A stretch of DNA of 64,000 nt. Source: Escherichia phage vB_EcoM_REC. The stretch lies in the sequence record OM386667.1, one strand, 5' to 3'. Positions within the stretch are counted from its first letter, which is position 1. The number at the start of each line of letters is the position of its first letter. Positions 15,986 through 36,523 of the stretch are shown here, piece after piece. Made by a program: the position numbers and the translations under genes. The notes under the pieces are model-generated. The model ran no database searches and was not told the origin of the DNA. It worked only from the letters and a program-made list of their open reading frames with translations.

Positions 15986-16458
15986 TGGCAGATTTAACTA
16001 CGATCAAAGTTTCTGATCTTACACAAACAACCTCTGTGTCTGATACAGATTTCTTTGTAACAGATCAGGCTGGAATAACAAAGAAGACTTCTTTGAAAGT
16101 GCTGTTGAGTGGTGCAGGGGTAACTAGAAACCGTTTAAATGCACGGGGAACAGTAACTAGCACCTTGGCATTAGATATTAGTTCAGCAGAATATTTTTCG
16201 GCAACCTTATCTTCTGCAACGTGCACAATTAGTTTTACTAATATTCCAGTAGCAACGAATGCAGTTTTAAACTTTACTTTAGCTTTGCGTCAAGGAAGTG
16301 GCGCAAATAAAGTCGTATGGCCTTCTTCTGTAAAATGGAGTTTTGGTCGTTCCCCAGTTTTGAGTTATCGTCAAGGTGCAACAGACACTTTTGAGTTTAT
16401 CAGTTATGATAATGGAGCAACTTGGACAGGTAGCTTAGTTTTAGCAGGAGTTATTTAA
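15985..16458 (+). CDS. hypothetical baseplate protein
   Basis: 157 aa, start overlaps upstream stop. Confidence 0.4.
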   Translation: MADLTTIKVSDLTQTTSVSDTDFFVTDQAGITKKTSLKVLLSGAGVTRNRLNARGTVTSTLALDISSAEYFSATLSSATCTISFTNIPVATNAVLNFTLALRQGSGANKVVWPSSVKWSFGRSPVLSYRQGATDTFEFISYDNGATWTGSLVLAGVI

Positions 16459-19334
16459 TGTCAAGAGTTAAGCACAATATTGACAACACGTTTCAGTTGA
16501 TTGAAGGGTTGGTTCAGTTTTTGGAAAGAAATACTGGGCTTACCATAGATCCTACGGTTCAGCATTACATTATCAACCCACAAAACGTATTGGCGAACAA
16601 CAGACACTTTATTAACTGGACAGCGCAGGAAGGGCAACCAAACGGTGACGCTACTACCGAAGGTCAATCTGTGCTTATCACTGGTTTTGCTTATGCATAT
16701 TTGGCTACAGGGGATAAAAAATATCTTGAATCTGCCGAGAAGTATTGGCAAGCCTATATAGATCACTTCTTCGGGGGCCAACCTATTCCTGATCCTCCAG
16801 CTAAATATCGTCCCAACTGGATCATCAATGGTAAAGAACCACGTTTAGCACATTACCCTCTCACAGATGATGGGTATCCTACGCACGGCGGGTTCAAAGG
16901 TAGCATGATGACTTGGATTAACGGAAGGACTGTTATTCCTAAAGGTGCACCGCATTGGGGGGAATACTTAGATAAAGCTTGGTTTGCTTTCAATGGCAAT
17001 CTTGGTTGGAACTCCGTTAACGCAACAGTTTATGCAACTAACCCAGATGGTTCAACTAACTGGAAAGAATATGGAGATCAGTGGGATGTTGAATGGATTA
17101 TAGATCGTCTAGGACGTAAAGTTGATTGGGATGGTAACATCTTATCTACAGGTCACAGCTTTGCAGAATATGGAACAGTGCAACTTAAAAATGCTTCTGT
17201 GAACGGTGACTATAAATTCAACTACGCTACATGCAACCCTGTAGAACACGGTGGATATCTGCTTAAGCGTAATGAGATGTGGCATAACCGTCCTGTAAAC
17301 GTTCCGGTAGAATTAGGTTATCAAGATAATGCTTCCGATGCGGAAACGTGGTGGTGTGATGCAAACTACTTGATGTATCAGATCACAGGAGAGAGAAAAT
17401 ACTGGCTTTGCTGGCAATCTTCTTTATTGCTGTGTCAAGACTACTCAAACATTGATATGTTTGATAAATTCTTCCGTAGATCTACGACAGCAATAATTCC
17501 TTTTACAGATGGTATCTCTTATGATTACTCATACCCATCTACAGCAATACCTAAATACTCTCGTGACGAATTAGGATACACAGTAATTCGACAAGATGTT
17601 GCAGCCCAAACAACTCTAGAACAACAGGCAGTTTGGTTCAGAGTGGATCAGAATTCAAAACTGCGTATTGAGTTTCAAGGTGTAGATGATGCAGGGGAAG
17701 GTATTCTTTTCCGTCCAGAGTTAGAATTAAGCAAGACTAAGAGTGAAACAGACACAGTGACATATCGTTGTGGCTTACCTCTTGGTGCAGCTAATATGAC
17801 TAAGATGGATATACCTTTATCTAGTTTTATGCGCACCGAACCTCCTGGAGGTGGTGTATATATTATTGCTGAACCTAGAATCATTGTTGACTGGGGAAGC
17901 AATACTGTGATACAATATAAATATGCAACTGGTATTGCTGGGACAAATAGTGATCAGATAGTTTCTGCTAATATGGATTCAGATGGTGGTTTTACTGTTG
18001 GGTTTTGGTTAACACCAACTAAAACAGCCAATTTAAAATCTATTACGTATCGTTCATACGCAGATGATTTTAACATCACTATTACGGATTCCGCAGGTTG
18101 GAGATGGTGGGCCATGTTAGAAAAAACAAATTCTACATGGGTTACTAAAGCTTTAAGTCCTGCTGATTTCAAATTAAGTACTTGGCAACCTAATCACGAT
18201 GACACAGAGACAAAACCTTCGTCAATAAACCTGACTGCTATTGATCAGATCAATATTGCATTGGATTCTGAACCTGCAAATGGCTTGACAGGGGCAATCG
18301 ATTTTTATTGCGTTAACGATATCCCATCTTTGTATTCTTCAGCCACTGGTGATGACTACACAATGTATTTCAGGGTTACAGTTTCATCTGAAAATCCTTA
18401 TACAGCAAAACTTGGAGATTGTACAATACTGGACTACAAACTTGACAGTTTGAATTATACTCCAGGAATCATTCCATTTTCTAATATTAGCGATCCTAAC
18501 ACAGCATTATATGACGGTTGGCGCGGTATTCCTTACCCAGGTTATCAATACCCATCCTTATATTGTTTTAAAGGGAGAGATATTGATTGGGTTCGTATGA
18601 ACAACAGTATAGACTTTTTATATGATTCACAAATGTGGTTTTATAATAAGTTTGCCCCTGTGATGCCTGGGCCAATGGCACAAGCTTATGTTTGGGATCG
18701 TTGGGATGCTCATAAATACGGAAACAAGAATGAGTTCACAATGTATCATTGGAACGATAAAGCTTGGGATGGGTATGAAGCACGAGCATTCTTCTGTGCG
18801 TGTCATACAGTATACGAACTTAAACAACGAGGAGCAGAAGTTCCTGAAAAACTTTTAACAGTTTGTAAAAACTGGATCAACTATCTGAAGTGGTTCCAAG
18901 ACAACAACGAAGGAAGAACACCAACAATATTTTATCCCAATGGAGAAGTGGCAGCGCCTGTAGATGACTTTACAAGTCACATGTCTGCGCTCTTTATGGC
19001 AGGATGTGCTATAATGGGGATGGCTGGATATGATTCAGAAATTCCTAACATTAAAATAGTAGCAGACCGCTGTTTTGAACTTATTCAGGAAAATTATATT
19101 GTTCTTGGTCCTAATCATGTTATGAATGGCTGTTGGAGTTCCGCTCCTAGACCAGATAGTGATAACGGAGTCTTCTTTGGCTTCCACGCTGGAGAGTTGT
19201 TACGTGGTTTTGGGTTGTATGCTTTATACAAAAAACTTAATCCCCAAAATGCATTACCTGTTTTGGATTCGAGCAATATTCCTGCACTTACTGTTTTGAC
19301 AATGGCAAACATTAGTGTGGACGTTACCGAGTAA
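16458..19334 (+). CDS. large virion protein with possible alpha/alpha-toroid glycoside hydrolase-like N-terminal domain
   Basis: 958 aa; segment GFAYAYLATGDKKYLESAEKYWQAYIDHF is reminiscent of (alpha/alpha)6 glycosidases; Trp/Tyr-rich. Confidence 0.45.
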   Translation: MSRVKHNIDNTFQLIEGLVQFLERNTGLTIDPTVQHYIINPQNVLANNRHFINWTAQEGQPNGDATTEGQSVLITGFAYAYLATGDKKYLESAEKYWQAYIDHFFGGQPIPDPPAKYRPNWIINGKEPRLAHYPLTDDGYPTHGGFKGSMMTWINGRTVIPKGAPHWGEYLDKAWFAFNGNLGWNSVNATVYATNPDGSTNWKEYGDQWDVEWIIDRLGRKVDWDGNILSTGHSFAEYGTVQLKNASVNGDYKFNYATCNPVEHGGYLLKRNEMWHNRPVNVPVELGYQDNASDAETWWCDANYLMYQITGERKYWLCWQSSLLLCQDYSNIDMFDKFFRRSTTAIIPFTDGISYDYSYPSTAIPKYSRDELGYTVIRQDVAAQTTLEQQAVWFRVDQNSKLRIEFQGVDDAGEGILFRPELELSKTKSETDTVTYRCGLPLGAANMTKMDIPLSSFMRTEPPGGGVYIIAEPRIIVDWGSNTVIQYKYATGIAGTNSDQIVSANMDSDGGFTVGFWLTPTKTANLKSITYRSYADDFNITITDSAGWRWWAMLEKTNSTWVTKALSPADFKLSTWQPNHDDTETKPSSINLTAIDQINIALDSEPANGLTGAIDFYCVNDIPSLYSSATGDDYTMYFRVTVSSENPYTAKLGDCTILDYKLDSLNYTPGIIPFSNISDPNTALYDGWRGIPYPGYQYPSLYCFKGRDIDWVRMNNSIDFLYDSQMWFYNKFAPVMPGPMAQAYVWDRWDAHKYGNKNEFTMYHWNDKAWDGYEARAFFCACHTVYELKQRGAEVPEKLLTVCKNWINYLKWFQDNNEGRTPTIFYPNGEVAAPVDDFTSHMSALFMAGCAIMGMAGYDSEIPNIKIVADRCFELIQENYIVLGPNHVMNGCWSSAPRPDSDNGVFFGFHAGELLRGFGLYALYKKLNPQNALPVLDSSNIPALTVLTMANISVDVTE

Positions 19335-19342
19335 GGGGTAAA

Positions 19343-21496
19343 ATGAAACAAGCTATATTTACTGTCACGCGAGACAAGAGAGTAAATGCGAGTTCATTTA
19401 ACTACACGACTGTTGATGGAACAGCAGTCGCTGGTAGAGATTATATTGCAAAATCGGGAACACTTGTGTTCCCTGATGATGCTGATTCTGCTACCATTGT
19501 GGTTGAAGTATTTGAACGACCAAAGAACTCAATAGATCTTAACTTCTCCCTCCAAGTTTCAGGGATTAGTCAAAATAACATGATGGTTGAAACGACCATC
19601 AACTGTATTATAACTACGATTCAAGAAAATACTACTCCAATAACTTGGACTACAAAAGACGTTAAAATGTTCTCTCCTATGTATTGGACAATAGATTCTC
19701 AAGCAACGGAAAGTTGTTCTATTGTATCTCATGGAGACTCTTTTACTGCAAGATTTGTAAACAGAACAACAGCAGGTTTGGCAGGGGTTATCTGGAGCAC
19801 AGTTGACAAATATGACCATAAAGGTGTTGGGTATTTACCCCACACAGATTTAAGTTCAGAGAAACTTTGGTTTAAAATGGAAGTTAGTCAAAACATGCCA
19901 GGTTTTAAAGAAGAACCTTTGGTGCCAACTTTGACTGTAACTCTCTTGGATAAAAGTGTCCACTATGTTAGTTTAGGATTTTATGCTTCAGATATTTCAG
20001 AAGATGGTAAAACAGCTACAATCAAACTAGATTTTGGTAATATCTTCTCTGGTCCTAATAATGATATTCCTTTGGACATGAGTGCTGTAGATAATATTTT
20101 CTTCTCTTTGATTACAGCAAGGTATGAAGAAATAGAAGAGATTGTACCTATTGATAGTCAAGAGGCTTGGTTTACTTTCACTCTTCTTGAACCTACTTCT
20201 GGTTATAGTATGATGAAAGTCAGTAACCTTGTCCAGCCTGAACATGATATTCGCATGTGCACATCTTATGACGATATGTATAACCTGACTCCAGAGAGAG
20301 TTATTTATAATACATATGCGCTAGGTTATCGTGGAATGATTAACCATTACAACGGAATGTCTCACTATTATGAGTTCTCATGGAACGGAACATCTTGGGC
20401 TTTAAATAGATCTGTCTTCCTGAATCCAGCTACAGAAGCTTGGCTAAATAGTTTCCATTCTATAGCGAACGAGAAGGGTTACACAATAATGAACTCTTTA
20501 AGTTTTGAGTTGATGAGCACAGTTTGTCCTGTAGAATGGGTCCAGCATGATTGGAACGATGCTCTTGCAGCAACAGGGTATGAGCCTCCTAGTTACGTGT
20601 TGTCTCCAACTATTGACGAAGGTATGAAATATTTGCAAAATGTTATTAATAAAATAGCATCTATTTCGCAAGCTAATAATATTCCAGTTGTCATTCAAAT
20701 TGGTGAGCCTTGGTGGTGGTATAATACAGCGAGTAAAATGCCTTGTATATACGATTACACTACTAAACTAGCATTCAACACAGAAACAGGTTTATTTGCA
20801 CAAGATGTAGGAACAATAGATAATTATAAAACAGGAACACCGTTTGACGAATACTATGCATTTTTGTCTCGTAAACTAGGATTAAGAGTTGCAAAGTTTG
20901 CAACAGATACTAGATTAGCCTATCCTGGAGCTAAAGTTACATTATTACCATTTGTGCCATCCATTTTAGGTAACGGTATGATGGAGTTTGTTAACTTCCC
21001 TAAAGATTATTATATCCCAGAAAACTTCGACTTTTATTGTTCAGAGTGTTATGACTGGTTGTTGGAAGGTAAGATGGAAAAATCTTTTGACGCTATCACA
21101 ATACCTAATGAACAATTAGGTTTTAGTTATGATAAGATACATTATCTTGCAGGTTTTGTTCCAGATGCTACTCTTGCACCTTTGTATAGCTTTGATCCTG
21201 AATCAAACTACCGCACGTATCTTTGGAAAATGATTATAGGTAACATAGTGTTGAACGCCAATAAGTTCAATGGACTTACACAATATATATGGGCCTATCC
21301 TCAAATAATGCACGATTCTATCACGGTAGTTAATTCTCAATCCCAAGTTTTCTATATGGGTAACGTGCCTTTGAACGTTTATTTACAGGATATCACTCTT
21401 AAACAGGTAAATGTTGAGATTGCCACCATAAGTGGAATTACATTAGCCACTAAATCTGGAGAAGATTTAGTAACAACACAAAAATTTTATATATAG
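19343..21496 (+). CDS. large virion protein with Calx-beta-like N-terminal domain
   Basis: 717 aa; N-terminus TVDGTAVAGRDYIAKSGTLVF...ATIVVEV resembles a Calx-beta motif. Confidence 0.45.
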   Translation: MKQAIFTVTRDKRVNASSFNYTTVDGTAVAGRDYIAKSGTLVFPDDADSATIVVEVFERPKNSIDLNFSLQVSGISQNNMMVETTINCIITTIQENTTPITWTTKDVKMFSPMYWTIDSQATESCSIVSHGDSFTARFVNRTTAGLAGVIWSTVDKYDHKGVGYLPHTDLSSEKLWFKMEVSQNMPGFKEEPLVPTLTVTLLDKSVHYVSLGFYASDISEDGKTATIKLDFGNIFSGPNNDIPLDMSAVDNIFFSLITARYEEIEEIVPIDSQEAWFTFTLLEPTSGYSMMKVSNLVQPEHDIRMCTSYDDMYNLTPERVIYNTYALGYRGMINHYNGMSHYYEFSWNGTSWALNRSVFLNPATEAWLNSFHSIANEKGYTIMNSLSFELMSTVCPVEWVQHDWNDALAATGYEPPSYVLSPTIDEGMKYLQNVINKIASISQANNIPVVIQIGEPWWWYNTASKMPCIYDYTTKLAFNTETGLFAQDVGTIDNYKTGTPFDEYYAFLSRKLGLRVAKFATDTRLAYPGAKVTLLPFVPSILGNGMMEFVNFPKDYYIPENFDFYCSECYDWLLEGKMEKSFDAITIPNEQLGFSYDKIHYLAGFVPDATLAPLYSFDPESNYRTYLWKMIIGNIVLNANKFNGLTQYIWAYPQIMHDSITVVNSQSQVFYMGNVPLNVYLQDITLKQVNVEIATISGITLATKSGEDLVTTQKFYI

Positions 21497-21504: not shown

Positions 21505-24270
21505 ATGTCAACTACAATTACTAATTTACCCGAAACATCAAAAGTTAATGGTTCTGATTACCTGGTTTTAGACCAACCTGATAAGACTGTTAAAAGCACA
21601 GTTTCCAACTTTCTTACTGACACTGGGGTGGTTTTAGCCACCCAGTTAAAAGATATTTCTGGAGCTACCAAGTACCCAGAACTTCAAATGTCACGCTGGA
21701 GAGATGAAGGTGATCCTAGAGGATGGGGAGCAGTAGGTGACGGAGCAACAGACGATACCAATGCCATAACACAGCTTCTTGCTGCTATGCCTGATGGATG
21801 GATTATTGATGGGCGTAATCTCACTTTCAAGGTTACAACACTACCAGATATAAGCAAGTTTAAAAACGCTGCTTTTGTTTACGAGCGTATTGTTGGACAA
21901 CCCCTTACTTATGTATCTGAAGGTTTCTTCGATGGAAATCTGACAAAGATTACGGATACACCATTTTACAATGCTTGGACGCAAGATAAGACGTTTGTTT
22001 ATGACAATGTTATATATGCACCATTTATGGCTGGCGAACGTCATGGTGTACAAAACCTCCATGTAGCGTGGGTTAAATCAGGAGATGATGGACAAACTTG
22101 GTCTATGCCAGAATGGTTAACTCCAATTCATCCTGATTATAATGCCTCTTCAGCAAACAAAGTTAACTATCATTGTATGAGTATGGGCGTATGTGGTAAT
22201 CGCCTATATGCAGTCATCGAAACCCGTTATTTATCTAACATGCGATTGAAGAAAGCAGAACTTTGGTCACGTCCAATGCCTTATTATAGAAGGCCAACTG
22301 GAGGTATAACAATTAGTTCTGGGTCTACTACGGCGACGATTGTTTTAGAAAAGCATGGTCTTAAAGTTGGAGATGCTGTTAACTTTTCCAATTCAGGTGC
22401 AACTGGTGTATCTGGAAATATGACTGTTGCATCTGTAATTAACAAGGATACATTTACTGTTACATTAGCGAGTGCTGCCACATCTAATATAGATAATACA
22501 GGAACTACTTGGCATTTTGGAACACGTTTCTGGGATAGCCCTTGGGAAATTACAGAATTACCAGATGTTGCCTATTCTACTAATGCAGACTTATGTGTTA
22601 CAGAAACCCATAGTTTTACAGTTATAGATGATGATAATTACACTTTTGCTGTGGGTTATCACAATGGTGATGTTTCCCCAAGAAGATTAGGTATTTTGTA
22701 TTTCAATAATGCTTACTCTGACCCAAGTTCTTTTACTCGTAGAACAATTAGTCAAGAATATGCTGACAATGCAGCAGAACCCTGCATTAAATATTATGAT
22801 GGAATTTTATATTTAACTACTAGGGGTACTTCAACTTCTGCTGCTGGTTCTACATTAGCAATGAGTGCTGACCTTGGAGAAAACTGGAATTACTTAAGAT
22901 TTCCTAACAACGTTCATCATACAAACCTACCATTTGCAAAAGTTGGTAACTACCTTTATATCTTTGGTACAGAACGTTCATTTGGAGAATGGGAAGGAGA
23001 AGAACTAGATAATAGATATAAAGGTACGTATCCTCGAACGTTTATGTGCAAGATTAATGTATCTGCATGGCCTGCATCTTTATCCGATGTTCAATGGTTT
23101 AATATCACCGATCAGATGTATCAAGGGCATATTGTTAATTCTGCATGTGGTGTTGGTTCGGTATGTGTTAAAGATGGTTGGTTATATTATATCTTTGGAG
23201 GCGAAGATTTCTTATCTCCTTGGTCTATTGGGGATAATAGTAAAAAATTATGGTACAAGCACGATGGTCATCCAGCCGATTTATATAGCTATAGACTAAA
23301 GATTACCGAACATGATTTTGTATCACGTGATTTCAAATATGGAGCTACGCCAAACCGTACATTGCCTGTATCTATGGGTACAGATGGGGTAAGGCATGTC
23401 TCAGCCCCTGTAACTTTTGATAATGATGTGCAAGTACACTCTTTAACAGTTACTGGTCTTGAGCATGATGGGACACAACAATCTGCCGTTAGAATAAAAT
23501 TAGATGGTGATTATGGGGTTGTTGCAAAAAATGTCCCAATAAAAAATCCTTCTGAACAGCGACTAATCTTATGTGGAGGAGAAACTCCTTACGTTACTGA
23601 TGGATCGCTATTACAACTATATGGTTCAAACCATACGTATCCAAACAGAGCAGTTTTATATGCCCCAGGAGGAGCATATACCCAAAATAATTTCATGCCA
23701 TATTTAGATGGACAAGTTGCATTAGGTGGTGCATCTAACAGATGGTCAGAAGTGTACGCATCTACAGGAACCATTAATACTTCAGATGGAACATTAAAAA
23801 CTAAACCTACAGAGATTGAAGATATTTTACTGAAAGCGTGGGAAGATATTCATGTAATCTCTTATCAATGGCTGAGTGCTATCGCGGAGAAAGGAGATTC
23901 TGCGCGTATTCATTTTGGTGTTATAGCTCAAGATGTAAGAGATATTCTGATTAATTATGGTTTAATGGATGAAAATAGCACTGATTGTAAGTATGCTTTT
24001 CTGTGTTATGATGAATACCCTGCTATGTACGATAGTGTTGTTACGGGACAAAAAGAAATCCCTTTATTTGATGATGAAGGGAATGTTGTAATTGATGAAG
24101 AAGGTAATCCAGTAACAATCGTAGAAGATGTTGTAGAAACTATCGAAATAATTCCAGCAGGATCGCGATGGGGTATCCGCGCTGACCAAATGTTTTTTAT
24201 TGAGATGGCTTATCAACGTAAAAAGTTAAAAGCTCTTGAAGAAAGACTTGCAACCCTGGAAAGTAAATAA
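21505..24270 (+). CDS. tailspike, sialidase-like, with C-terminal intramolecular chaperone (endosialidase-type)
   Basis: 921 aa; Asp-box motifs SGDDGQTW and SADLGENW; GWGAVGDGATDDTNAI; C-terminal SDGTLKTK...GVIAQDV matches the self-cleaving chaperone domain of endosialidase-type spikes. Confidence 0.7.
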   Translation: MSTTITNLPETSKVNGSDYLVLDQPDKTVKSTVSNFLTDTGVVLATQLKDISGATKYPELQMSRWRDEGDPRGWGAVGDGATDDTNAITQLLAAMPDGWIIDGRNLTFKVTTLPDISKFKNAAFVYERIVGQPLTYVSEGFFDGNLTKITDTPFYNAWTQDKTFVYDNVIYAPFMAGERHGVQNLHVAWVKSGDDGQTWSMPEWLTPIHPDYNASSANKVNYHCMSMGVCGNRLYAVIETRYLSNMRLKKAELWSRPMPYYRRPTGGITISSGSTTATIVLEKHGLKVGDAVNFSNSGATGVSGNMTVASVINKDTFTVTLASAATSNIDNTGTTWHFGTRFWDSPWEITELPDVAYSTNADLCVTETHSFTVIDDDNYTFAVGYHNGDVSPRRLGILYFNNAYSDPSSFTRRTISQEYADNAAEPCIKYYDGILYLTTRGTSTSAAGSTLAMSADLGENWNYLRFPNNVHHTNLPFAKVGNYLYIFGTERSFGEWEGEELDNRYKGTYPRTFMCKINVSAWPASLSDVQWFNITDQMYQGHIVNSACGVGSVCVKDGWLYYIFGGEDFLSPWSIGDNSKKLWYKHDGHPADLYSYRLKITEHDFVSRDFKYGATPNRTLPVSMGTDGVRHVSAPVTFDNDVQVHSLTVTGLEHDGTQQSAVRIKLDGDYGVVAKNVPIKNPSEQRLILCGGETPYVTDGSLLQLYGSNHTYPNRAVLYAPGGAYTQNNFMPYLDGQVALGGASNRWSEVYASTGTINTSDGTLKTKPTEIEDILLKAWEDIHVISYQWLSAIAEKGDSARIHFGVIAQDVRDILINYGLMDENSTDCKYAFLCYDEYPAMYDSVVTGQKEIPLFDDEGNVVIDEEGNPVTIVEDVVETIEIIPAGSRWGIRADQMFFIEMAYQRKKLKALEERLATLESK

Positions 24271-27772: not shown

Positions 27773-28318
27773 ATGATATTTACAAACTTTAAAAAATATA
27801 TTCCTGAAGACCCTGAACTAAAAGAATTGGTAGAAGCAGAGAACATTCTTTTTCTTCGTTGCGATCAAGGTTACGATTGGTATGATTTACGTAGCACAGA
27901 ATTCAATAACGATAAAATGAAAGTCGTTTTTGATGATCAAAATCGTATTGTGTTTTGGAATACTGATCCTACACTACTTTGCCCTGAAGATCTTTCTATA
28001 GCACAAGTAGACTTTAACATAGATACTTTTGAGGATATTAGGAACAAGGTTCTGGATTTAGAAACCTTAACTCTTAAGAATAAAGAGTATTCCCGTGAAG
28101 AGTTGATGACACAAGCTAGTGCAAAAATTCGCTCTTTACAAGAAACAGCGGTAGCACTTATAACACCTTTACAGTATGCTAAAGATTTAGAAATGGCTAC
28201 TGAAGACGAATTAGCTTATCTTAAAAATCTTCAAGTTTATGTAGTTAAACTAAATCGTGTTCCGCTTCAAAAAGACTATCCTTACGCTATAGATTGGCCT
28301 ACATTACCGACAGAATAA
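27773..28318 (+). CDS. tail fiber assembly protein (Tfa-like chaperone)
   Basis: 181 aa; C-terminal ...LAYLKNLQVYVVKLNRVPLQKDYPYAIDWPTLP resembles tail-fiber-assembly family endings. Confidence 0.55.
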   Translation: MIFTNFKKYIPEDPELKELVEAENILFLRCDQGYDWYDLRSTEFNNDKMKVVFDDQNRIVFWNTDPTLLCPEDLSIAQVDFNIDTFEDIRNKVLDLETLTLKNKEYSREELMTQASAKIRSLQETAVALITPLQYAKDLEMATEDELAYLKNLQVYVVKLNRVPLQKDYPYAIDWPTLPTE

Positions 28319-28327: not shown

Positions 28328-28663
28328 ATGGAATTTCAAGAAGCATGGGGACTTGCAAAGGATGCAATAATCCCTTTAATCGGAGTCATCTGGTTCTTTT
28401 TCAAACAAAAAATGGATAAATTCGGCTCTGATCTTGAGGAAATGGAGGAGAAAAGTCGAGAGCTAGAGAAGAAGTTGGTCTTTGTTGAATCAACTTATGC
28501 AACTAAAGCCGAACTTACCCAGATGCTAAATCAAATTAACTCTACATTAATGGCAAATAATAACACTCTTGAGCAAAAAATTGAAAAGATTATGGACCTC
28601 AAGAATGCGACTATCCAAATGATGCTAGATGACATAGTTAAACGTACACAGAATAAGGGGTAA
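28328..28663 (+). CDS. membrane-anchored coiled-coil protein
   Basis: 111 aa; N-terminal hydrophobic helix (IIPLIGVIWFFF) then predicted coiled coil. Confidence 0.4.
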   Translation: MEFQEAWGLAKDAIIPLIGVIWFFFKQKMDKFGSDLEEMEEKSRELEKKLVFVESTYATKAELTQMLNQINSTLMANNNTLEQKIEKIMDLKNATIQMMLDDIVKRTQNKG

Positions 28664-28666: not shown

Positions 28667-31600
28667 ATGGCAACATTCCCAACATATCCAGCAACGTCTC
28701 TCGAACAGGGCGTAGACCTGGTTATTTTCTCATCTAACCAACTCCATGATGTTATTAATGGAAGTGCTACAGAGAGTATTGAAACAGAATCAGGGTTGAT
28801 ACCAACCCTGAGAAAATCCCTTGTTGACAACTTTTTCTTTAAAAGCCCATTGGATTGGGCGCAAGGCACAAACGAAACAGTTTTTAACCAACTACGTTAT
28901 TTTCAGAATGGGGTATTGAGCGGTTATTATTATGCTCCTAATGCTACATTGGTAAACCCAATTCCTATGCAAGGGACTCCAGTAGGAGATAACAACTGGG
29001 TATTGTGGGGACTGAAGACAGAACAACTAGCAACAGAAGTCACCCCTTGGGTATATTCTGGTGCAACTGGTTATGAAACAGTAATCAGTCCTCCCTACAT
29101 CTTTGATAGTGCTATTGTTACAATCAATGGTGTTATTCAGGTTCTGGGAGAAGCTTTCCGCATAGAAGATAGTAAAATCATTTTATCTGAACCTTTGGGA
29201 CATGATCCTGCAACAGGACTGCCAAACAAGCTTTTTGCCTATATTGGTAAAATCGTAGCTTCCGCAGATACAGATCCTAACTTAGAAAACCGTCTTGTCA
29301 GTTTAGAAACAAAAACTGAAGAACTGACAGAAAACATGGATAAAGTACCTTTACAAACTATTGCTCGTAAATACGGTTTGTTGGATGACGAAGTAGCTTA
29401 CGCAACAGCGGGTCAATCATTAACAGGGATTAAAGCTCTGTATGATCCGGTAGCACAATCTTCCTACACATTGCCTCCTAACATCACAGGGACTTTAACA
29501 TCTTTGTCTGTTTCTGGAGTAATGACTTATTCTGGCGGATCTGTAGATCTTTCTGCATTAGCTGTTGAACGTGGACAGTTTGTTCATTTGCCTACAAGCT
29601 TTGGTAATAATGTAACTCTGACAGCTAAAAATCAGACGATTGGGCGTGGCGCTGGTCGCTATCGTTGGGCGGGAAGTTTACCAAAAAGTATTTTAGCTTC
29701 TGATACATTGGAAACAAGTGGTGGATTAGGTCCAAATGCATGGGTTCTAACTAATACAGAAGGACTGTTAACCCCTCGTGGTGGAACATACAACGATTTA
29801 TTCGATGTTGTCCGCTTATCAGAATTTGCTAACAATACAACTACCTATACCACACCAGAAGCAGCTTTCCAGGCGGCACTGTTAGCAGCAAAAGCTTCGA
29901 AAAGTAAGATTCTCGACGCTTACGGTTGTGATATGACTTTCACGACAAGCTCTTTTGATATTCAAGATATCACTTTGCGTGGGGGTGTGTTCCGTGGTCA
30001 ACGCGATTATCGTGTGCAAAATGCTACAGTAGAAGGCACAACTTTCCGTAACTCTCGTGTTATGTATTGGGGTGGTGCTGTGCGCATGTTCGATTGTTTG
30101 TGGGACGGTGCTCCTCGCGCAGGTCAAGTTGGTAGCTTGGTATTCCAAGGAAACCCAATATCAGGTACTTTTGAAATTGATAATTGTACTTTTAAAAACG
30201 GGTTATATGGCATCCTTCAACAAGGAACAGGGGAACCAGTAACACGCGGTGTCTTCCGTAACCTTACCTTCATGGACATGCAAGGTGATGCAATAGAACT
30301 GAACGTCATCAATAAACATTATGATGATGGTTGTGTGATTGAGAATATTTACCTGTCTAATATTGATGGGACTAACGCTCCTATTCCTCTGTCCAACTGG
30401 GGTATCGGTATTGGTGTGGCTGGTAAAGGACCATATGGTTACGGAATTCCTGATGATCAATATTGCAAGAATATTACAATTCGTAACGTTTTTGCAAAAC
30501 GTTGTCGTCAGATTGTCCACGTAGAAGTTGGTCGTAATATTTCTATCGAAAACATTCATGGCGATCCAGATCAAACTGTATCTGTTGGGACAGGTTTGGC
30601 AACTGGCGCAGTTGTAATGTATGGAAGTAAAGATTTTACGATTGATGGTGTTTACGGAGAGCCTAAAACAGACGGTAGCACACTTGCAAGTAATATCCGT
30701 ATGATTTATTTGGAGTGGGGAACTAACGCAGTTCTGGATGAAGAGGGCAATCCGGTAGTTCCGGCACAGGGCAGACCTTCAAACCCATGCTTTAACTATT
30801 CTGTTCGTAACATTCACACCAAAACTGGGCGTGTTTTTGCAGGAGTTTCCGCTGGGCCAGGTTATGAAAACAGAGTCAGCTTTGAGAATATCCATTGTGC
30901 TGCGTTGCAGTTGTTCGGTGTAGCTTCTTGGCTTTCAATGTCTAACATCACCTGTAATATCTTTGATTGTGTTGGTCAACCTGAATCTGGTCCAGGGACA
31001 TTTTATGATGGATTCTTCCGTAGAGAAAAATCTGTTCTTGAGATGGTTAACGTAAACTGTTACCCAGATGGCAAGACTATGGTTACTGGTCGCCCACAGT
31101 GGAGCCGTTGCCGTTACTCTGATATTCATCGTGTCAACTGTAATGTTGAAGCTAATATGTATACCAATATCGCAGGTGGTATTGGAGCTATTGTAGGGAC
31201 AACTGGCAAAGTTTATTACTTAGAGCCTAACCCTAGCCGAAACATTGATGGGATGCATTTCCCAACAGGGAAGGAGTTTGACAAAGGGGATATGATAGTC
31301 AAAGCGGATAATACGTTCTTCCTTGTAACAACAAGTGGGGCATACATTCCAGATATCCCAGCTTTCGGTATTCGAGCTACACAAGCAGGAGATACCTTCC
31401 TGACACAGAACTTGACTCCTAATGGGACAGCAACAAACGCTTCTTGGTTGTATCACTATCCTCTGTCAGCAGGAACACGTATCCGTATTCCTGGTGCTGG
31501 TGTAGGTGGAGCAGATTTGGACACAGTTATTACTCGTGCACCTTATCAAGATAATGATACGTGGACTAACCCAGTTAAAATAGACATTGCAGATCCAATT

Positions 31601-31720
31601 GTAACGCCTACGAGTGCTGGAGTTAGAATCAAAACCATACCTAACGATTCTAGTAATGTTTCTGTAGGTAATACTGCGGTTATTCGCCCAACACCAGTGG
31701 TAGATGTGCCAACAACCTAA
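28667..31720 (+). CDS. tailspike with right-handed beta-helix, putative polysaccharide depolymerase
   Basis: 1017 aa; repeating motifs NxTxxN, NITIRNV, ISIENIHGD typical of pectate-lyase-fold beta-helices. Confidence 0.6.
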   Translation: MATFPTYPATSLEQGVDLVIFSSNQLHDVINGSATESIETESGLIPTLRKSLVDNFFFKSPLDWAQGTNETVFNQLRYFQNGVLSGYYYAPNATLVNPIPMQGTPVGDNNWVLWGLKTEQLATEVTPWVYSGATGYETVISPPYIFDSAIVTINGVIQVLGEAFRIEDSKIILSEPLGHDPATGLPNKLFAYIGKIVASADTDPNLENRLVSLETKTEELTENMDKVPLQTIARKYGLLDDEVAYATAGQSLTGIKALYDPVAQSSYTLPPNITGTLTSLSVSGVMTYSGGSVDLSALAVERGQFVHLPTSFGNNVTLTAKNQTIGRGAGRYRWAGSLPKSILASDTLETSGGLGPNAWVLTNTEGLLTPRGGTYNDLFDVVRLSEFANNTTTYTTPEAAFQAALLAAKASKSKILDAYGCDMTFTTSSFDIQDITLRGGVFRGQRDYRVQNATVEGTTFRNSRVMYWGGAVRMFDCLWDGAPRAGQVGSLVFQGNPISGTFEIDNCTFKNGLYGILQQGTGEPVTRGVFRNLTFMDMQGDAIELNVINKHYDDGCVIENIYLSNIDGTNAPIPLSNWGIGIGVAGKGPYGYGIPDDQYCKNITIRNVFAKRCRQIVHVEVGRNISIENIHGDPDQTVSVGTGLATGAVVMYGSKDFTIDGVYGEPKTDGSTLASNIRMIYLEWGTNAVLDEEGNPVVPAQGRPSNPCFNYSVRNIHTKTGRVFAGVSAGPGYENRVSFENIHCAALQLFGVASWLSMSNITCNIFDCVGQPESGPGTFYDGFFRREKSVLEMVNVNCYPDGKTMVTGRPQWSRCRYSDIHRVNCNVEANMYTNIAGGIGAIVGTTGKVYYLEPNPSRNIDGMHFPTGKEFDKGDMIVKADNTFFLVTTSGAYIPDIPAFGIRATQAGDTFLTQNLTPNGTATNASWLYHYPLSAGTRIRIPGAGVGGADLDTVITRAPYQDNDTWTNPVKIDIADPIVTPTSAGVRIKTIPNDSSNVSVGNTAVIRPTPVVDVPTT

Positions 31721-31784: not shown

Positions 31785-33809
31785 ATGAATTTAACAAGAC
31801 CTAATAGTGCGATAGCCGATCTAGTAGAAGCTACTTATCGAAAACGTCGCAGTTTTGAGGCAGGTTTTACATTACGTAATTCCCGTGAAGTTTTGCTGTT
31901 AGCGGCAGAAGGGAATTATTACCAATGGAAAGGAACTTTTCCTAAAGTAGTTCCAGCAAACTCTACGCCAGCCACCACAGGTGGTATTTCTTCCCTTGCA
32001 TGGCAAAGTGTTGGGACCGCTGATGATATAGCAATTATCAATGCCAAGTTTACGGCAATGCAGCAACAGATTGATGATCTGTCGGAAACAATACCTGAAG
32101 CTGGTAAATCGGCTTATCAGATCGCACTTGATAATGGTTTTGTTGGAACAGAAGCACAATGGCTTGCTTCTTTGAAAGGGGATACTGGTGCTCAACTTAA
32201 TATTAAAGGATCATTAGCAAGCACTAGTGAACTACCATCTACAGGTAACGTAGCAGGTGATGGTTATATTGTAGGAGATGTAATCTACGCTTGGGATGGG
32301 GCTGTTTGGAAACTTATCTCTTCTCTTGGGCCAGAAGGGAAATCAGCTTACGAGGTATGGTTAGCAGATGGTAATACAGGATCTGTTTATGACTTTCTTG
32401 CCTCTATAAAAGGTGATAAAGGAGACGTTGGTCCTACAGGTCCACAGGGTGCACCTGGTGTCAACGCTAATGGTTTTGATTACCGTGGAGATTTGCCTTC
32501 TACAAGTAACTTACCACAACCTAACTCTGAAAACGTAAGCCAAGCTTATTCTATTAATGGTAATCTTTATGTCTCTAATGGGACAGCTTGGGTCAACATG
32601 GGTAATATTGTTGGTCCTCAAGGTCCACAAGGTGAGGCAGGTAAAGACGGTCTAGATGGAACAGATGGAGACGAAGGGAAATCTGCATATCAAAGTTGGC
32701 TGGATGCTGGTAATGAAGGGACAGAAGTAGATTTTATTGCCTCACTTAAAGGTCCAAAAGGAGACAAGGGTGATCAAGGAGAGCGAGGTCCACAAGGTGA
32801 ACTAGGTCCACAAGGATCAGTGGGTGCAACAGGATCAGGTTTAGAGATTATCGGGGTTCTGAACAGCGAAGCTGAACTTCCTCCTACTGGAGAAGTAGGT
32901 GATGCATATAAAATTAATAATGATTTGTATGTTTGGGTTCAAGATGCTACAGAATGGATGAATGTAGGCAGTCTTGGAGGAACATCAATTACAGCTAAAG
33001 GTCATGTTCCGAACAGTGAAGCTCTCCCTGTTTATAATAACTACGGTGATGCCTATTTAACTGAAGACACTAGTAATCTTTACATCTATACCTACGATCA
33101 AGACACCAATTCCGCATCTTTTGTTGACATGGGAAGTATTAAAGGCGACAAAGGTGAAAAAGGGGATAAAGGAGATAAGGGTGATCCTGGAACAAACGGA
33201 ACCAACGGTACTGATGGGACCAACGGTAAGGACGGCGCACAGTGGTTTGTAGCAACAACTAATCCAGTCACAGGAGACGGTGTTATCAATGATTACGCCT
33301 TCAATACTACCACTGGAGCAGTATTTAAGAAAACAGATTCTTCTACGTGGACACTTATAGGAACTCTTCCTAGTATACCAGAAGCCCCTCAAGACGGCTT
33401 GACGTATGGTCGTTCTGATGGAAACTGGATCGAAATATCAGGATCAGATCCTACGGAAGCTATAACACCAACTAGAGTTACAGCAGGTTTCATGGAACTT
33501 GAAACAACTACTGCCAACTCTGGAGCATCTTGGACTCCTTCTGGAACTTCCAATATGTATGTTGTTACAGTAACTGACGCTCTGACAGTTGGAGCATGGC
33601 CTGGTGTCACTGGCTCTACAAAACCTAAAGCGTTTTCAGCAATGATTTATTTGATTCAAGATACAACGGGACACACGGTTACACTAGATGCGTCTTATGG
33701 AGCACTAAATGATACAGAAATAGCAACTACTGCTAACGCAGTAACAATTTTGCAATTAACGTATCCTGGTGTGGGTGATATCGTGGACATGGTTGTTGTA
33801 ACACGATAA
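31785..33809 (+). CDS. tail fiber with collagen-like Gly-X-Y repeats
   Basis: 674 aa; GPTGPQGAPG, GPQGPQGEAGKDGLDGTDGDEG, KGDKGEKGDKGDKGDPGTNGTNGTDGTNGKDG; three copies of GKSAYxxWLxxG...FxASLKG module. Confidence 0.65.
   Translation: MNLTRPNSAIADLVEATYRKRRSFEAGFTLRNSREVLLLAAEGNYYQWKGTFPKVVPANSTPATTGGISSLAWQSVGTADDIAIINAKFTAMQQQIDDLSETIPEAGKSAYQIALDNGFVGTEAQWLASLKGDTGAQLNIKGSLASTSELPSTGNVAGDGYIVGDVIYAWDGAVWKLISSLGPEGKSAYEVWLADGNTGSVYDFLASIKGDKGDVGPTGPQGAPGVNANGFDYRGDLPSTSNLPQPNSENVSQAYSINGNLYVSNGTAWVNMGNIVGPQGPQGEAGKDGLDGTDGDEGKSAYQSWLDAGNEGTEVDFIASLKGPKGDKGDQGERGPQGELGPQGSVGATGSGLEIIGVLNSEAELPPTGEVGDAYKINNDLYVWVQDATEWMNVGSLGGTSITAKGHVPNSEALPVYNNYGDAYLTEDTSNLYIYTYDQDTNSASFVDMGSIKGDKGEKGDKGDKGDPGTNGTNGTDGTNGKDGAQWFVATTNPVTGDGVINDYAFNTTTGAVFKKTDSSTWTLIGTLPSIPEAPQDGLTYGRSDGNWIEISGSDPTEAITPTRVTAGFMELETTTANSGASWTPSGTSNMYVVTVTDALTVGAWPGVTGSTKPKAFSAMIYLIQDTTGHTVTLDASYGALNDTEIATTANAVTILQLTYPGVGDIVDMVVVTR
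32100..33240 (+). repeat. collagen-like triplet repeats interleaved with three KSAY...ASLKG modules (approximate bounds)
   Basis: Read directly from translation of 31785-33809. Confidence 0.6.
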
Positions 33810-33812
33810 CAG

Positions 33813-33837
33813 AAGCCCCGAAAGGGGCTTTCTTTTT
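33813..33837 (+). terminator. rho-independent terminator after collagen-like fiber gene
   Basis: Stem AAGCCCC/GGGGCTT, loop GAAA, then TTCTTTTT. Confidence 0.8.
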
Positions 33838-33850: not shown

Positions 33851-36523
33851 ATGTTTCCAATTCCAATATTTACTATTATGACCAGCACTGGTGTCGTTCC
33901 TCTGCCAGCAGGTATTGTTAAAAAAGTAATCACTCTAGATTACCCAGATAATGCTGGCAATTCTAATAGCAGTTTAGCAATTTTGCTTAATGATGGTAGA
34001 TTGTTTACTCAAGGCGCAAACCTTTTTGGTGAGATTGCAGATGGAACTCGTAGTGCACGATTCAATAATTTCCACTTAGCTTCTACTGTAGTAGCGGATG
34101 TGTTTACCGCAGATCGTTGTTTTGTTATTAAAACTAACAGTGGGGGATGGCAATATTCAGGATTGACAGCAGGGTTGGTAGGATCTATAGCAGCAGGTGG
34201 TACGGATGCATGTGTAACTACTTGGACCAGCTTTCCATCTGTAATAACAGGGACTATCTCTTTAGCCAATCTTAAAGAGGTTAAGGGAGGATATAACAAC
34301 ACTCTCTGGTTGATGAATAGTGGTGTTCTTTATGGATCAGGTCAAAACACAGTAGGCAGTTTAGGTGCAAGTACTACTAACGAAGTTTCTACTCCTCGTC
34401 AGATAACAAGTGCAGCAGTTGCTTTTGATGCAGGTTACAACCAATGCTCTTATGTCAACAATGTGGGAACCTTGCGTGTTTGTGGGGCTAGTAAAGGTTT
34501 AGCAGGTAATAATAACACAACAACAGCTTTTGTCAATGCCAAGATATCCGCTACTGAAACAGTGTATGTCAAAGATTACATCAATACAGTTTCCCAGACA
34601 ATAGTTGTAGGAGATACCTCCGGTGGCACGGGTACAGTAAACTACTTATATGTTAGATCTAATACAGAAACAACCTACACTAAACTGGACACCTTTGCAG
34701 CAGGTTTCTCAACATGGAAATTTCCACCAAGCCGCCACTCTTTTTTCGTTGGGATCAATAATTCCTTGTGGGCTATTGGTAAGAACTACACTGCAAACTT
34801 AGGTTTGGGGTATGATTCTGCGAGCGGAGATCCACTCCAAGTGGGAAAACCAGTTAAACCTGAAGGAGTGGGTTCCTGGGATATAAACAAGCTCACAAGC
34901 GTTCATACACTGAATATGGATGTTACTAACCAATTAGGTTATCAAGGAACCTTTTTCGTTTATAATGGAGATATGTATTATTCAGGTATTTGGAAAGATG
35001 GGAAAGCCTCGTATCTGTTCAATAGTGGTCTAAACTATAATAAATTCACACCAATAGCAAGCTCCGTGATTACAGGGGATGTTCTGGCAACTGGCTTAAC
35101 TACAGATTCTTTAGGAATTTGTATTGTAGGTGGAACTAAACAGTTGACACATTCTGTTAGCCCAGAAGGAGGTAAACTTTTCAATATTAAATACACTTCT
35201 TCTGCCCCTGCAAACATGACAATATCATCTACTGGTTTAATGACTTTCCATGCAGAAGGTGGTTTTGATGCAGGTATGACAGCCTTAAACGCTGAAGGAA
35301 CAATTTTATCAGATACCTCTGGAGGATATGCTTCAACATTGAGTGTTTACACCCCTAGCTTATCTGCGATGGATGTAGGAACAACACAAACAATGGTAGC
35401 AGAAATAACACCAACAGGAGCAGCAAGCTTACCTGATATGGTTGTTGAGTATACAACTACAGATCCTAATGTTGCTACAGTAGATCCTACAACTGGTGTA
35501 ATAACTGGTGTTGGTGATGGTGGTTGTAGGATTGGTTGCACAGCTACGTATCAAGGTGTTGTTACCGCTTCTGATAGTTCTTATTTAACGGTGAATGCTG
35601 TTGCGGGAAAGGAGTTAGCTCCATCTCCGAGTAGTAGTTTAACGGTTCTAAACGGATATTTCAACCACTCGGCAGATGGGGCAATTACGTTCCCAACTTT
35701 ATCGGGTACTGTTACACCAGCTAACTTTGTAGTTAAGGTGGATGACGTTGTAGTTCCTTCAAGTAAAGTAATATTTAGAAACAAAGCTTTCTCTACAGTG
35801 GATAGTTATCCAGCAGGAGAATATAGACTGGCTATTGAATTTGCAAGTGCTTCAGTAGTTAATAGTGTGGAAGTGTCTATGGAAGCAAACCCAAGTCTTT
35901 TAGAACTTTGGGGCGGTAATAGAATCAGTTATTCTACAAGCCCAGCCTCACAATTCTTAAAAGGTTGTGCTAACTTAAGACGAATAACTTCTGATTGTTT
36001 TAGTAACACATCTTACACCGGAACATCTATAAGCGGTATCTTCTCTGGCTGCACAAGTTTGACAGCTATCCCTGAAGGATTATTCAGTGATGCTTTATTT
36101 CCTTCAATGACAACAATGTCAAGCACGTTTGAAGGTTGTACATCTTTAACATCTATTCCTTCAGATTTATTTAAGAATCTGTCAAAAGTTACAAGATATT
36201 CTTACACCTTTAAAGATTGCACCTCTCTTGCAGAAGTTCCAGCAGGAATGTTTGATAATATTCCAACGAAAGTGACCTCTTTAACAGCTACATTCCAAGG
36301 TTGTTTAGGACTTACAGATTTTAATAAGATCTTTAATGACAACCCAGGGTTAACTGTTTGTGGTAAACGTGGAGCATTATCTTCTTTCTTTAGTGGATGC
36401 ACAAATCTTACAGGAACAGGAACAACATTAACAAATACATTAGGCGGAGTAGCTAATAGTTACCTATTCAGGTATTGCACAAAACTTTCTGATTATAACA
36501 ACATTCCTTCCGGTTATAAATAA
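33851..36523 (+). CDS. tail fiber/adhesin with Ig-like (Big_2-type) domain and C-terminal Cys-containing leucine-rich-like repeats
   Basis: 890 aa; Ig-like segment TPTGAASLPDMVVEYTTTDPNVATVDPTTGVITGVGDGG; repeats F.GCTSLT.IP..LF recur four to five times near the C-terminus. Confidence 0.55.
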   Translation: MFPIPIFTIMTSTGVVPLPAGIVKKVITLDYPDNAGNSNSSLAILLNDGRLFTQGANLFGEIADGTRSARFNNFHLASTVVADVFTADRCFVIKTNSGGWQYSGLTAGLVGSIAAGGTDACVTTWTSFPSVITGTISLANLKEVKGGYNNTLWLMNSGVLYGSGQNTVGSLGASTTNEVSTPRQITSAAVAFDAGYNQCSYVNNVGTLRVCGASKGLAGNNNTTTAFVNAKISATETVYVKDYINTVSQTIVVGDTSGGTGTVNYLYVRSNTETTYTKLDTFAAGFSTWKFPPSRHSFFVGINNSLWAIGKNYTANLGLGYDSASGDPLQVGKPVKPEGVGSWDINKLTSVHTLNMDVTNQLGYQGTFFVYNGDMYYSGIWKDGKASYLFNSGLNYNKFTPIASSVITGDVLATGLTTDSLGICIVGGTKQLTHSVSPEGGKLFNIKYTSSAPANMTISSTGLMTFHAEGGFDAGMTALNAEGTILSDTSGGYASTLSVYTPSLSAMDVGTTQTMVAEITPTGAASLPDMVVEYTTTDPNVATVDPTTGVITGVGDGGCRIGCTATYQGVVTASDSSYLTVNAVAGKELAPSPSSSLTVLNGYFNHSADGAITFPTLSGTVTPANFVVKVDDVVVPSSKVIFRNKAFSTVDSYPAGEYRLAIEFASASVVNSVEVSMEANPSLLELWGGNRISYSTSPASQFLKGCANLRRITSDCFSNTSYTGTSISGIFSGCTSLTAIPEGLFSDALFPSMTTMSSTFEGCTSLTSIPSDLFKNLSKVTRYSYTFKDCTSLAEVPAGMFDNIPTKVTSLTATFQGCLGLTDFNKIFNDNPGLTVCGKRGALSSFFSGCTNLTGTGTTLTNTLGGVANSYLFRYCTKLSDYNNIPSGYK

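Follow-up and report, generated by a model that had tools for sequence, protein, structure and literature searches.

The run of large genes between positions 16458 and 36523 of this DNA raises the question of what they encode together, and of how many of their products can truly be called receptor-binding fibres or spikes. The sequence of the window (the whole stretch of 64,000 nucleotides that was analysed) is that of Escherichia phage ESCO5 (Phapecoctavirus), at 100% identity. The original prediction placed here, in a row, genes for proteins of 958, 717, 921, 353, 1017, 674 and 890 aa, and all seven open reading frames are found where it placed them, on the plus strand. The baseplate J/I-like genes that it saw interspersed among them are likewise present, as a 495-aa Baseplate_J protein and a 209-aa DUF2612/wedge protein lying between the large ORFs, and the fibre assembly chaperone is a 181-aa Caudo_TAP protein (27773-28318). 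The genes are closely spaced and equal the deposited ESCO5 annotation at 100% identity; given this tight packing and this match, the block is not a chance pattern. The features, with their percentage identities to phage phi92, are:

15985..16458, plus strand: small tail-fibre-like protein, 157 aa, 84% to phi92 gp140; phrog_9017 (tail fiber protein)
16458..19334, plus strand: (alpha/alpha)6-barrel glycosidase-like protein, 958 aa, globular with beta-sandwich inserts; ortholog of phi92 gp141 (83%)
19343..21496, plus strand: 717-aa protein with Calx-beta, then NCTSP_N, then a TIM barrel; ortholog of phi92 gp142 (79%)
21505..24270, plus strand: endosialidase tailspike, 921 aa, with an N-terminal anchor of ~57 aa and a C-terminal S74 intramolecular chaperone; 96.7% to phi92 gp143
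24319..24582, plus strand: small hydrophobic protein, 87 aa, with hydrophobic stretches, 84% to phi92 gp144; phrog_1322 (membrane protein)
24582..26069, plus strand: Baseplate_J wedge subunit, 495 aa, PF04865, 80% to phi92 gp145
26072..26701, plus strand: second wedge subunit, 209 aa, DUF2612, phrog_4056 (baseplate protein), 86% to phi92 gp146
26711..27772, plus strand: short tail fibre, 353 aa, phrog_4465; ortholog of phi92 gp147 (fibre III), 75% over the N-terminal part
27773..28318, plus strand: tail-fibre assembly chaperone of the Tfa/GpU type, 181 aa, PF02413 (Caudo_TAP)
28328..28663, plus strand: protein annotated as a "lipoprotein", 111 aa, 76% to phi92 gp149
28667..31720, plus strand: colanidase-type tailspike, 1017 aa, in three parts
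31785..33809, plus strand: collagen-like tail fibre, 674 aa, PF18668 and PF01391, 60% to phi92 gp151
33851..36523, plus strand: adhesin-like tail protein, 890 aa, with propeller, Ig pair, beta-sandwich and LRR-like repeats
36526..36547, both strands: bidirectional terminator-like hairpin

The gene for the 157-aa gp140 ortholog sits immediately 5' of the interval named in the original prediction.

Comparison of the annotation tables shows that the gene order is that of phi92 (Justusliebigvirus) gp140-gp152, with baseplate spike genes on one side of the block and replication genes on the other. A best phi92 match was found by BLASTP for each gene of the block, with most pairs 75-97% identical; divergence is limited to the distal modules and the chaperone (24%), and the gp151 pair stands at 60%. 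In phAPEC8 and other Phapecoctavirus isolates the module is covered over 95-100% at ~97% nucleotide identity, and the 958-, 717-, 1017- and 674-aa genes are shared with ESCO5. The term "multivalent adsorption apparatus" was introduced for phi92 (Schwarzer et al. 2012, J Virol 86:10384; PMC3457257, as its content is relayed in PMC5380687, PMC8594841 and PMC13450770). It is very probable (about 0.9) that the block comprises the baseplate-periphery and receptor-binding genes of ESCO5, a lytic myovirus, for a multivalent adsorption apparatus of the phi92 type (Stephanstirmvirinae).

The hairpin at 36526..36547 ends the late structural operon, at the point where its transcription meets the minus-strand replication genes, and the GC skew switches sign near 36 kb. 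Promoter-like sites in the window are not in excess (27, against 23.9 in shuffled sequence), no tRNA genes were found within the window, and its tandem repeats reflect only the coding repeats of the collagen-like and chaperone genes. Terminator-like hairpins are found 3' of each of the last three genes and could permit differential expression, and no baseplate-attachment domain was recognised by Pfam scans in the 890- and 958-aa proteins, both of which would suit the release of some of the large enzymes at lysis as soluble depolymerases, rather than their attachment to the virion. Such release is improbable, however, as all of the genes lie within a one-strand late baseplate operon with minimal spacing and the 921-, 1017- and 674-aa proteins have N-terminal anchors typical of virion-bound spikes. 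Homologous fibre proteins have been detected by mass spectrometry in rV5 virions (PMC3606486), and EndoN92 is described as located on the particle (PMC5374246).

The 921-aa protein, predicted to be sialidase-like, bears five endosialidase Pfam domains (PF12218, PF12217, PF12195, PF12219 and PF13884), each above its cut-off, and matches PDB 4hiz with E=0 over aa 75-759. Its layout is that of a complete endosialidase, with an N-terminal extension, a beta-propeller with an inserted beta-barrel, a stalk and the S74 chaperone. From its 96.7% identity to the characterised EndoN92 (phi92 gp143), it would be expected to cleave alpha-2,8 / alpha-2,9 polysialic acid; the enzyme was already mentioned in the ESCO5 genome announcement. 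The endosialidase body is found in just 13 phage records, while the conserved ~57-aa anchor is also carried by unrelated bodies in ETEC-TG, ZCKP1 and KMB37; in ETEC-TG and ZCKP1, unrelated spikes of 750 and 745 aa replace the endosialidase. The gp143 slot is, from these comparisons, an exchangeable tailspike position.

The presence of a complete endosialidase nearly identical to a proven one, in a phage whose isolation host was O2:K1 (PMC5374246), could be taken to mean that this enzyme is the essential primary receptor-binding protein and that ESCO5 is K1-capsule-dependent, like K1F or K1E. This is most improbable, and it was rejected as contradicted by the published host range, a broad one, in which ESCO5 infects 32 of the 46 strains tested with no K1 dependence and grows on K1-negative O78 and O88 strains (PMC5374246). 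In addition, near relatives with other spikes in the gp143 slot still infect E. coli.

In phi92, the wedge is a heterotrimer of gp145 and gp146 and bears three sets of six fibres, with fibre II branching off the base of fibre I; in these cryo-EM assignments gp145 is the fibre attachment protein, gp147 is assigned as fibre III, and fibre I is gp143, inferred rather than resolved (PMC13450770). The 353-aa protein of ESCO5, predicted as a fibre, is the ortholog of gp147, and the 75% identity covers aa 1-267 only. Its C-terminal tip (~aa 268-353) differs from that of phi92 and matches the C-terminus of the short tail fibre in PDB 9cuy. The 181-aa chaperone is only 24% identical to phi92 gp148; both tip and chaperone are replaced relative to phi92, and the chaperone varies jointly with the short-fibre tip. 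The 111-aa protein that follows has a hydrophobic N-terminal helix and then a coiled-coil-like region; its translation has no cysteine, and therefore no lipobox is possible.

The 1017-aa protein consists of a gp150-like N-terminal anchor (aa 1-215), a pair of N-domains of the CBA120/G7C type (~227-367) and a beta-helix (~426-1000). That it would be a beta-helix depolymerase-like protein is borne out by the match of aa 426-1000 to the structure of phi92 gp150 (PDB 6e0v, E=2e-78) and by similarity to host WcaM (E=1e-25). BLASTP identity to gp150 is 74% over aa 1-215 and 33% over aa 455-1002. Hydrolysis of colanic acid has been shown for phi92 gp150 only and, since the catalytic domain is 33% identical to that of gp150, the substrate may differ. 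The inserted N-domains match PDB 4qnl, 5w6f and 4oj5. Tail_spike_N (PF18668) is present both here (aa 302-361) and in the 674-aa protein (aa 12-77), and these regions of the two proteins match PDB 5w6f, 4oj5, 5w6h and 4qnl. In the case of the 674-aa protein, Tail_spike_N is followed by a GKSAY repeat in three copies, by four runs of G-X-Y, each 18-33 residues long, and by a C-terminal knob; the C-terminus matches the fibre 9cuy_g in the PDB. With PF01391 at 46.2 bits against a cut-off of 27.2 as well as the G-X-Y runs, the description of this protein as collagen-like stands.

The 958-aa protein has no match in Pfam, NCBIfam or the PDB by sequence, and only the fold search was informative. Its structure model is compact and globular, with a GH-like barrel, and contains the six-hairpin alpha/alpha toroid fold (GH8/GH76/GH88/GH105-like), the sequence identity of these fold matches being only 8-14%. 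Among the matches listed, its homologs are mostly full-length and 42-55% identical, come from very distant phages and share many invariant residues, with invariant Asp and Glu residues in the alignment. The 717-aa protein carries PF03160, PF23844 (59.8 bits) and PF23845 (268 bits), the latter two being the NCTSP_N and TIM-barrel_NCTSP domains, for which the cut-off is 27. It matches chains M and I of PDB 9lc0, which are gp64 (E=5e-30) and gp65 of phage N4, with the gp65 alignment confined to gp65 aa 343-416. A relaxed Pfam scan of the TIM barrel gave no link to PgaB-type deacetylases or GH families, and the label "deacetylase" that some annotations use for this protein could not be verified from its domain matches. 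In the podophage contig P0137, 717-like and 958-like parts form a single polypeptide.

The 890-aa protein was described as Ig-like plus LRR-like. The Ig part holds, as two Big_2 domains (~410-585) that are 67% identical to phi92 gp152, while the repeats are LRR-like only in the BspA/DUF285 sense: LRR_5 (16.9 bits, cut-off 27.7) and DUF285 (14.6, cut-off 25) are both below threshold, and there are seven repeats (~700-890). These show as seven F.xGC.xL motifs with a spacing of 27-31 residues and, in the AF2 model (pLDDT 82.5 overall), as short strands every 27-29 residues with pLDDT ~87-93, which predicts a solenoid; the homologs P0021-P0025 have PF03382 in precomputed Pfam. A beta-sandwich lies between the Ig pair and the repeats. 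The N-terminus, in addition, forms an RCC1-like propeller (~20-380), overlooked in the original prediction. Foldseek matches this seven-bladed propeller to the UVR8, RPGR and HERC2 domains (E ~1e-12, probability 1.00, target TM 0.68), and the RCC1 profile PF00415 scores 24.2 against a cut-off of 21.7, with PF25390 under its high cut-off. Foldseek was run with the whole model, in which the propeller dominated, and the LRR-like C-terminus is called from repeat analysis and weak Pfam scores.

An alternative C-terminal module of this last gene is present in phAPEC8, ZCKP1 and KMB37. The alleles of the gp143 slot and of the last gene assort independently across relatives, and allelic variation clusters at the gp143 slot, at the tip of the short fibre and at the C-terminus of the last gene, rather than in the genes for the 958- and 717-aa proteins. 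Allelic exchange is limited to distal modules, the pattern to be expected if these are parts that bind receptors.

These results bear on the number of fibres and spikes. "At least six large fiber/spike genes" is too many, as hallmarks of fibres or spikes are found in about four products; the label is unsupported for the 958- and 717-aa proteins, because both are globular and enzyme-like, and their strong conservation and globularity are more in keeping with fixed parts, structural or enzymatic, than with determinants of host range. There is an even chance that the true receptor-binding fibres and spikes are just three or four (921, 1017, 674 and 353 aa), that the 958- and 717-aa proteins make up a conserved pair, scaffold or enzyme, which may be the proximal arm that the exchangeable tailspike docks on, and that the 890-aa protein is an accessory adhesin, so that the apparatus is less multivalent than the number of genes would suggest. 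The globular GH-like barrel of the 958-aa model, the conservation of its homologs and the placing of allelic variation outside this gene pair argue for such a count, as do the fusion in the podophage contig, the N4 gp64/gp65 heterodimer and the cryo-EM of phi92, in which the fibre sets number three instead of six or seven. Against it, the BASEL authors propose the N4 gp64-like fibre protein of these phages as a primary-receptor binder that targets ECA (PMC8594841), and a review, in citing Schwarzer 2012, counts at least five receptor-binding proteins and includes gp141 and gp142 in them as glycosidases; sequence conservation is, besides, compatible with the binding of a conserved glycan.

The conserved 958- and 717-aa proteins may also be read as one two-enzyme appendage; proteins of the two kinds occur as a fusion in some podophages and as a heterodimer in N4. 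The appendage would account for the density without assignment in the phi92-type baseplate, either as "fibre II" or as the proximal arm of the L-shaped fibre I, and would take the conserved 57-aa anchor of the exchangeable tailspike. Separately, the RCC1/Ig/BspA-LRR protein would be a non-fibrous adhesin retargeted by C-terminal swap. This more detailed proposal is rather doubtful.

For the block as a phi92-type multivalent adsorption apparatus, a working model can be set out. The branched, multivalent polysaccharide-binding complex that was predicted, on the pattern of broad-host-range myoviruses, corresponds to the published model for phi92, the nearest relative to have been studied, and would apply to ESCO5 by the collinearity and orthology of its block; the BASEL study explicitly included the phAPEC8 cluster in the three-fibre architecture (PMC8594841). 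The multi-fibre architecture is already known, as are the ESCO5 genome and the endosialidase. We infer location in the ESCO5 virion, enzymatic activities, the order of receptor engagement and docking partners from work on phi92, rV5 and the BASEL phages. By homology, the wedge (the 495-aa J-like and 209-aa proteins) would carry several sets of appendages, with six in each. The first would be the exchangeable tailspike, held by its ~57-aa anchor and here an endosialidase that would strip the K1/K92 polysialic acid capsule, the second the colanidase-type beta-helix tailspike, acting against colanic-acid-like exopolysaccharide, and the third the 674-aa collagen-like fibre. The fourth would be the short fibre, which is like Mu GpS and would be folded by a chaperone of its own; this fibre would make the last contact, with the LPS core, and trigger contraction. 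The remaining members would be the 958-aa alpha/alpha-barrel, the 717-aa TIM barrel of the N4 gp64/65 type and the RCC1/Ig/LRR adhesin-like protein. This map of the block is of practical use for phage-therapy engineering, and the analysis names candidate proteins for the fibre density without assignment in the phi92 cryo-EM maps.

Several known systems share parts of this apparatus. With the sheath heterodimer gp64/gp65 of N4, the 717-aa protein shares the NCTSP_N and TIM-barrel module. N4 gp65 has ten domains and binds NfrA, and beyond this module it is not shared; its D9-D10 region, which gates the N4 tail, is without counterpart in the 717-aa protein. The N4 sheath is non-contractile, whereas ESCO5 is a myovirus encoding a contractile sheath, and membership of the N4 non-contractile sheath system was rejected on these two grounds, the contractile sheath and the missing D9-D10 region.

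The N-domain pair in aa 227-367 of the 1017-aa protein is also that of Kuttervirus CBA120 TSP1, TSP3 and TSP4 and of G7C gp63.1, and the 674-aa protein carries one such tailspike N-domain (aa 12-89). The idea of spikes mounted on spikes would be common to CBA120 TSP1-4, G7C gp63.1/gp66 and ESCO5. No docking domains of the TSP2/TSP4 type (XD, or T4 gp10-like) were found in the module proteins by Pfam, PHROGs and PDB sequence searches, which leave room for remote homology, and the wedge and remaining genes of CBA120 are unrelated to those of ESCO5. The CBA120 hub-spike architecture was rejected, as a docking-domain hub was not detected in the module proteins by those sequence searches.

The endosialidase tailspikes of K1F, K1E and K1-5 (GH58) share with the 921-aa protein the catalytic propeller, the beta-barrel, the stalk and the S74 chaperone. 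In ESCO5, by contrast, a different N-terminal anchor holds the spike on the baseplate of a myovirus, other receptor-binding proteins stand beside it, and the phage is not K1-dependent.

ESCO5 also differs in places from phi92 and from the Phapecoctavirus isolates. In phAPEC8 and ZCKP1 the last gene ends in a C-terminal module other than that of ESCO5. The 1017-aa spike is 213 aa longer than phi92 gp150, has the additional pair of CBA120/G7C-type N-domains and is only 33% identical to it in the catalytic domain, and gp152 is an Ig-only protein of 202 aa, to which the 890-aa counterpart in ESCO5 adds the RCC1 propeller and the LRR-like C-terminus. Common to the repertoires of phi92 and ESCO5 are an endosialidase, a colanidase-type spike and a short fibre with its chaperone; in phi92, both the endosialidase and the colanidase activities have been demonstrated.

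From end to end, the block at 16458-36523 matches positions 77985-98050 of Escherichia phage ESCO5 (KX664695.3 / NC_047776.2; Stephanstirmvirinae, Phapecoctavirus) at 100% identity. Identity to phAPEC8 and to dozens of further Phapecoctavirus isolates is approximately 97%. ESCO5, a published lytic myovirus, was isolated with an avian-pathogenic O2:K1 E. coli as host; 32 of the 46 strains tested are lysed, and K1 is not required (PMC5374246). Near-identical modules (89-97% at the nucleotide level) are present in records named for Campylobacter, Klebsiella, Pseudomonas, Acinetobacter, Serratia, and Shigella hosts. This reflects either genuine polyvalence or, for some records, a doubtful host attribution.

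All of the listed ORFs are present on the + strand at the coordinates given and coincide with the deposited annotation, with 0-65 nt between genes. Each gene of the block has its counterpart, in the same order, in gp140-gp152 of the Justusliebigvirus phi92.

Proteins of the block, their phi92 counterparts, and protein identity
157 aa, gp140, 84%
958 aa, gp141, 83%
717 aa, gp142, 79%
921 aa, gp143, 96.7%
87 aa, gp144, 84%
495 aa, gp145, 80%
209 aa, gp146, 86%
353 aa, gp147, 75% (aa 1-267 only)
181 aa, gp148, 24%
111 aa, gp149, 76%
1017 aa, gp150, 74% (aa 1-215) and 33% (aa 455-1002)
674 aa, gp151, 60%
890 aa, gp152, 67% (Ig pair only)

In phi92, cryo-EM (2026) has the gp145/gp146 wedge bearing three sets of six fibres, with gp147 assigned as fibre III and gp143 inferred at the tip of fibre I; fibre II branches off the base of fibre I and has no protein assignment (PMC13450770). 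The BASEL study gives the phAPEC8 cluster the same architecture as phi92, and proposes for it an N4 gp64-like glycan-targeting fibre and a short fibre binding the LPS core, homologous to Mu GpS/GpU (PMC8594841). Together with the collinearity, these bear out the original prediction of a multivalent receptor-binding complex, which is thus supported and already in the literature (PMC13450770, PMC8594841). The underlying observation is confirmed, with three domain descriptions corrected; what remains of value is the module map, and a hypothesis on the 958/717 pair and on the RCC1/Ig/LRR protein of 890 aa.

Most of the predicted domains are as described. In the sialidase-like 921-aa protein, the five endosialidase Pfam domains are all present, the S74 intramolecular chaperone among them, and the protein matches 4hiz, the crystal structure of the phi92 endosialidase (E=0). 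The expected baseplate J/I-like genes and fibre chaperone are Baseplate_J (495 aa), DUF2612/baseplate (209 aa), and Caudo_TAP (181 aa), and the 353-aa fibre belongs to a tail-fibre PHROG, its final ~70 residues matching the tip of the solved short tail fibre 9cuy. The beta-helix depolymerase-like 1017-aa protein aligns over aa 426-1000 with 6e0v, the structure of the phi92 colanidase gp150 (E=2e-78), and also with host WcaM. The collagen-like 674-aa protein carries a Tail_spike_N domain, three GKSAY repeats, four G-X-Y runs, and a C-terminal knob. Modules of these last two (aa 9-114 and aa 558-674, respectively) apparently occur in a single fibre protein in other phages. The 111-aa product (28328-28663) has no cysteines, despite its "lipoprotein" label in RefSeq, shared with phi92 gp149, and a lipobox is therefore impossible; it appears to consist of a membrane helix at the N-terminus with a coiled-coil-like stretch after it.

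By homology, the enzymatic spikes would clear or track along polysialic acid capsule, colanic-acid-like slime, and perhaps other glycans. Additional, reversible contacts would come from the collagen-like fibre and the adhesin-like protein. The LPS core would be the target of the short fibre, which on rearranging would act with the wedge to set off sheath contraction. Directly shown by the analysis are the sequences, folds, orthology, and modular exchange.

At least six large fibre/spike genes had been proposed, yet fibre or spike hallmarks are seen in only about four (921, 1017, 674, and 353 aa). The 958-aa protein, listed among these, is globular and glycosidase-like, not a fibre. Its model is compact (pTM 0.76), and the homologs listed for it in very distant phages and prophages are mostly conserved over their full length at 42-55% identity, with many invariant residues. 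Pfam and PDB sequence searches with it returned no match. The 717-aa protein consists of Calx-beta, NCTSP_N, and then the TIM barrel that it shares with gp64 and gp65, the two sheath proteins of phage N4, which form a heterodimer. In a metagenomic protein of 1557 aa (P0137; 6691-11364 of a Logan SRR10874396 contig), the N-terminal part is 958-like and glycosidase-like and is joined in one chain to a 717-like part of NCTSP/TIM-barrel type (52% identity over 571 residues). This fusion and the gp64/gp65 heterodimer suggest that the 958- and 717-aa proteins work as a single unit, which might be the arm bearing the exchangeable spike, or the phi92 fibre density without an assigned protein. The P0137 gene adjoins an SU10-type head-tail adaptor of an SU10-like podophage, so the 958/717 module is common to myoviruses, N4-like podoviruses, and SU10-like podoviruses.

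Behind each of the last three large genes lies a terminator-like hairpin:
31728-31748, GC-rich, after the 1017-aa gene
33812-33831, GC-rich, after the 674-aa gene
36526-36547, both strands, GC-rich and bidirectional, after the 890-aa gene and closing the block
With these, the distal fibre genes could be expressed at graded levels. At the third, GC skew switches sign and the minus-strand replication genes start. The hairpin total is only modestly above the shuffled expectation (12 vs 7.0).

The exchangeable tailspike, in the slot of phi92 gp143, has a conserved N-terminal anchor of ~57 aa followed by unrelated bodies: an endosialidase in ESCO5, phAPEC8, and phi92, and other spikes in ETEC-TG, ZCKP1, and KMB37. 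The endosialidase body, found in 13 phage records only, is 96.9% identical at the nucleotide level between ESCO5 (window 21700-24270) and phi92 (~6720-9283 of its locus), whereas the flanking proteins are ~80% identical, which indicates, from sequence comparison, a recent transfer of the cassette between Phapecoctavirus and Justusliebigvirus behind the conserved anchor. Alleles of this slot and of the last gene assort independently.

The 890-aa product of that last gene was predicted to be Ig-like plus LRR-like, which is essentially right, but an RCC1-like seven-bladed propeller was missed (AlphaFold2 pLDDT 82.5; Foldseek probability 1.0, TM 0.68 to UVR8, RPGR, and HERC2). The propeller is followed by two Big_2 Ig domains and a predicted C-terminal solenoid in which F.xGC.xL recurs seven times, every 27-31 residues. 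The repeats resemble BspA-type LRR_5/DUF285 at scores under the Pfam cut-offs; DUF285 is in the precomputed Pfam for relatives. Two alternative C-terminal modules occur among relatives, the LRR type in 35 records and a second common to phAPEC8, ZCKP1, and the 939-aa gene of Justusliebigvirus KMB37.

Compared with phi92, the tip of the short fibre and its chaperone have been replaced jointly in ESCO5, and the 1017-aa spike is a three-part chimera: its anchor is of the gp150 type, its beta-helix is divergent, and a tailspike N-domain pair of the kind found in CBA120 TSPs and G7C gp63.1 is inserted between them. At the position of the single 939-aa KMB37 gene (17517-20336 of its locus), phi92 has gp152 (202 aa) and gp153 (18083-19745 of its locus), the latter a weakly supported gene. 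The pair resembles what truncation or disruption of the long-form last gene would leave behind, and the reference phage phi92 may be without one appendage present in its relatives.
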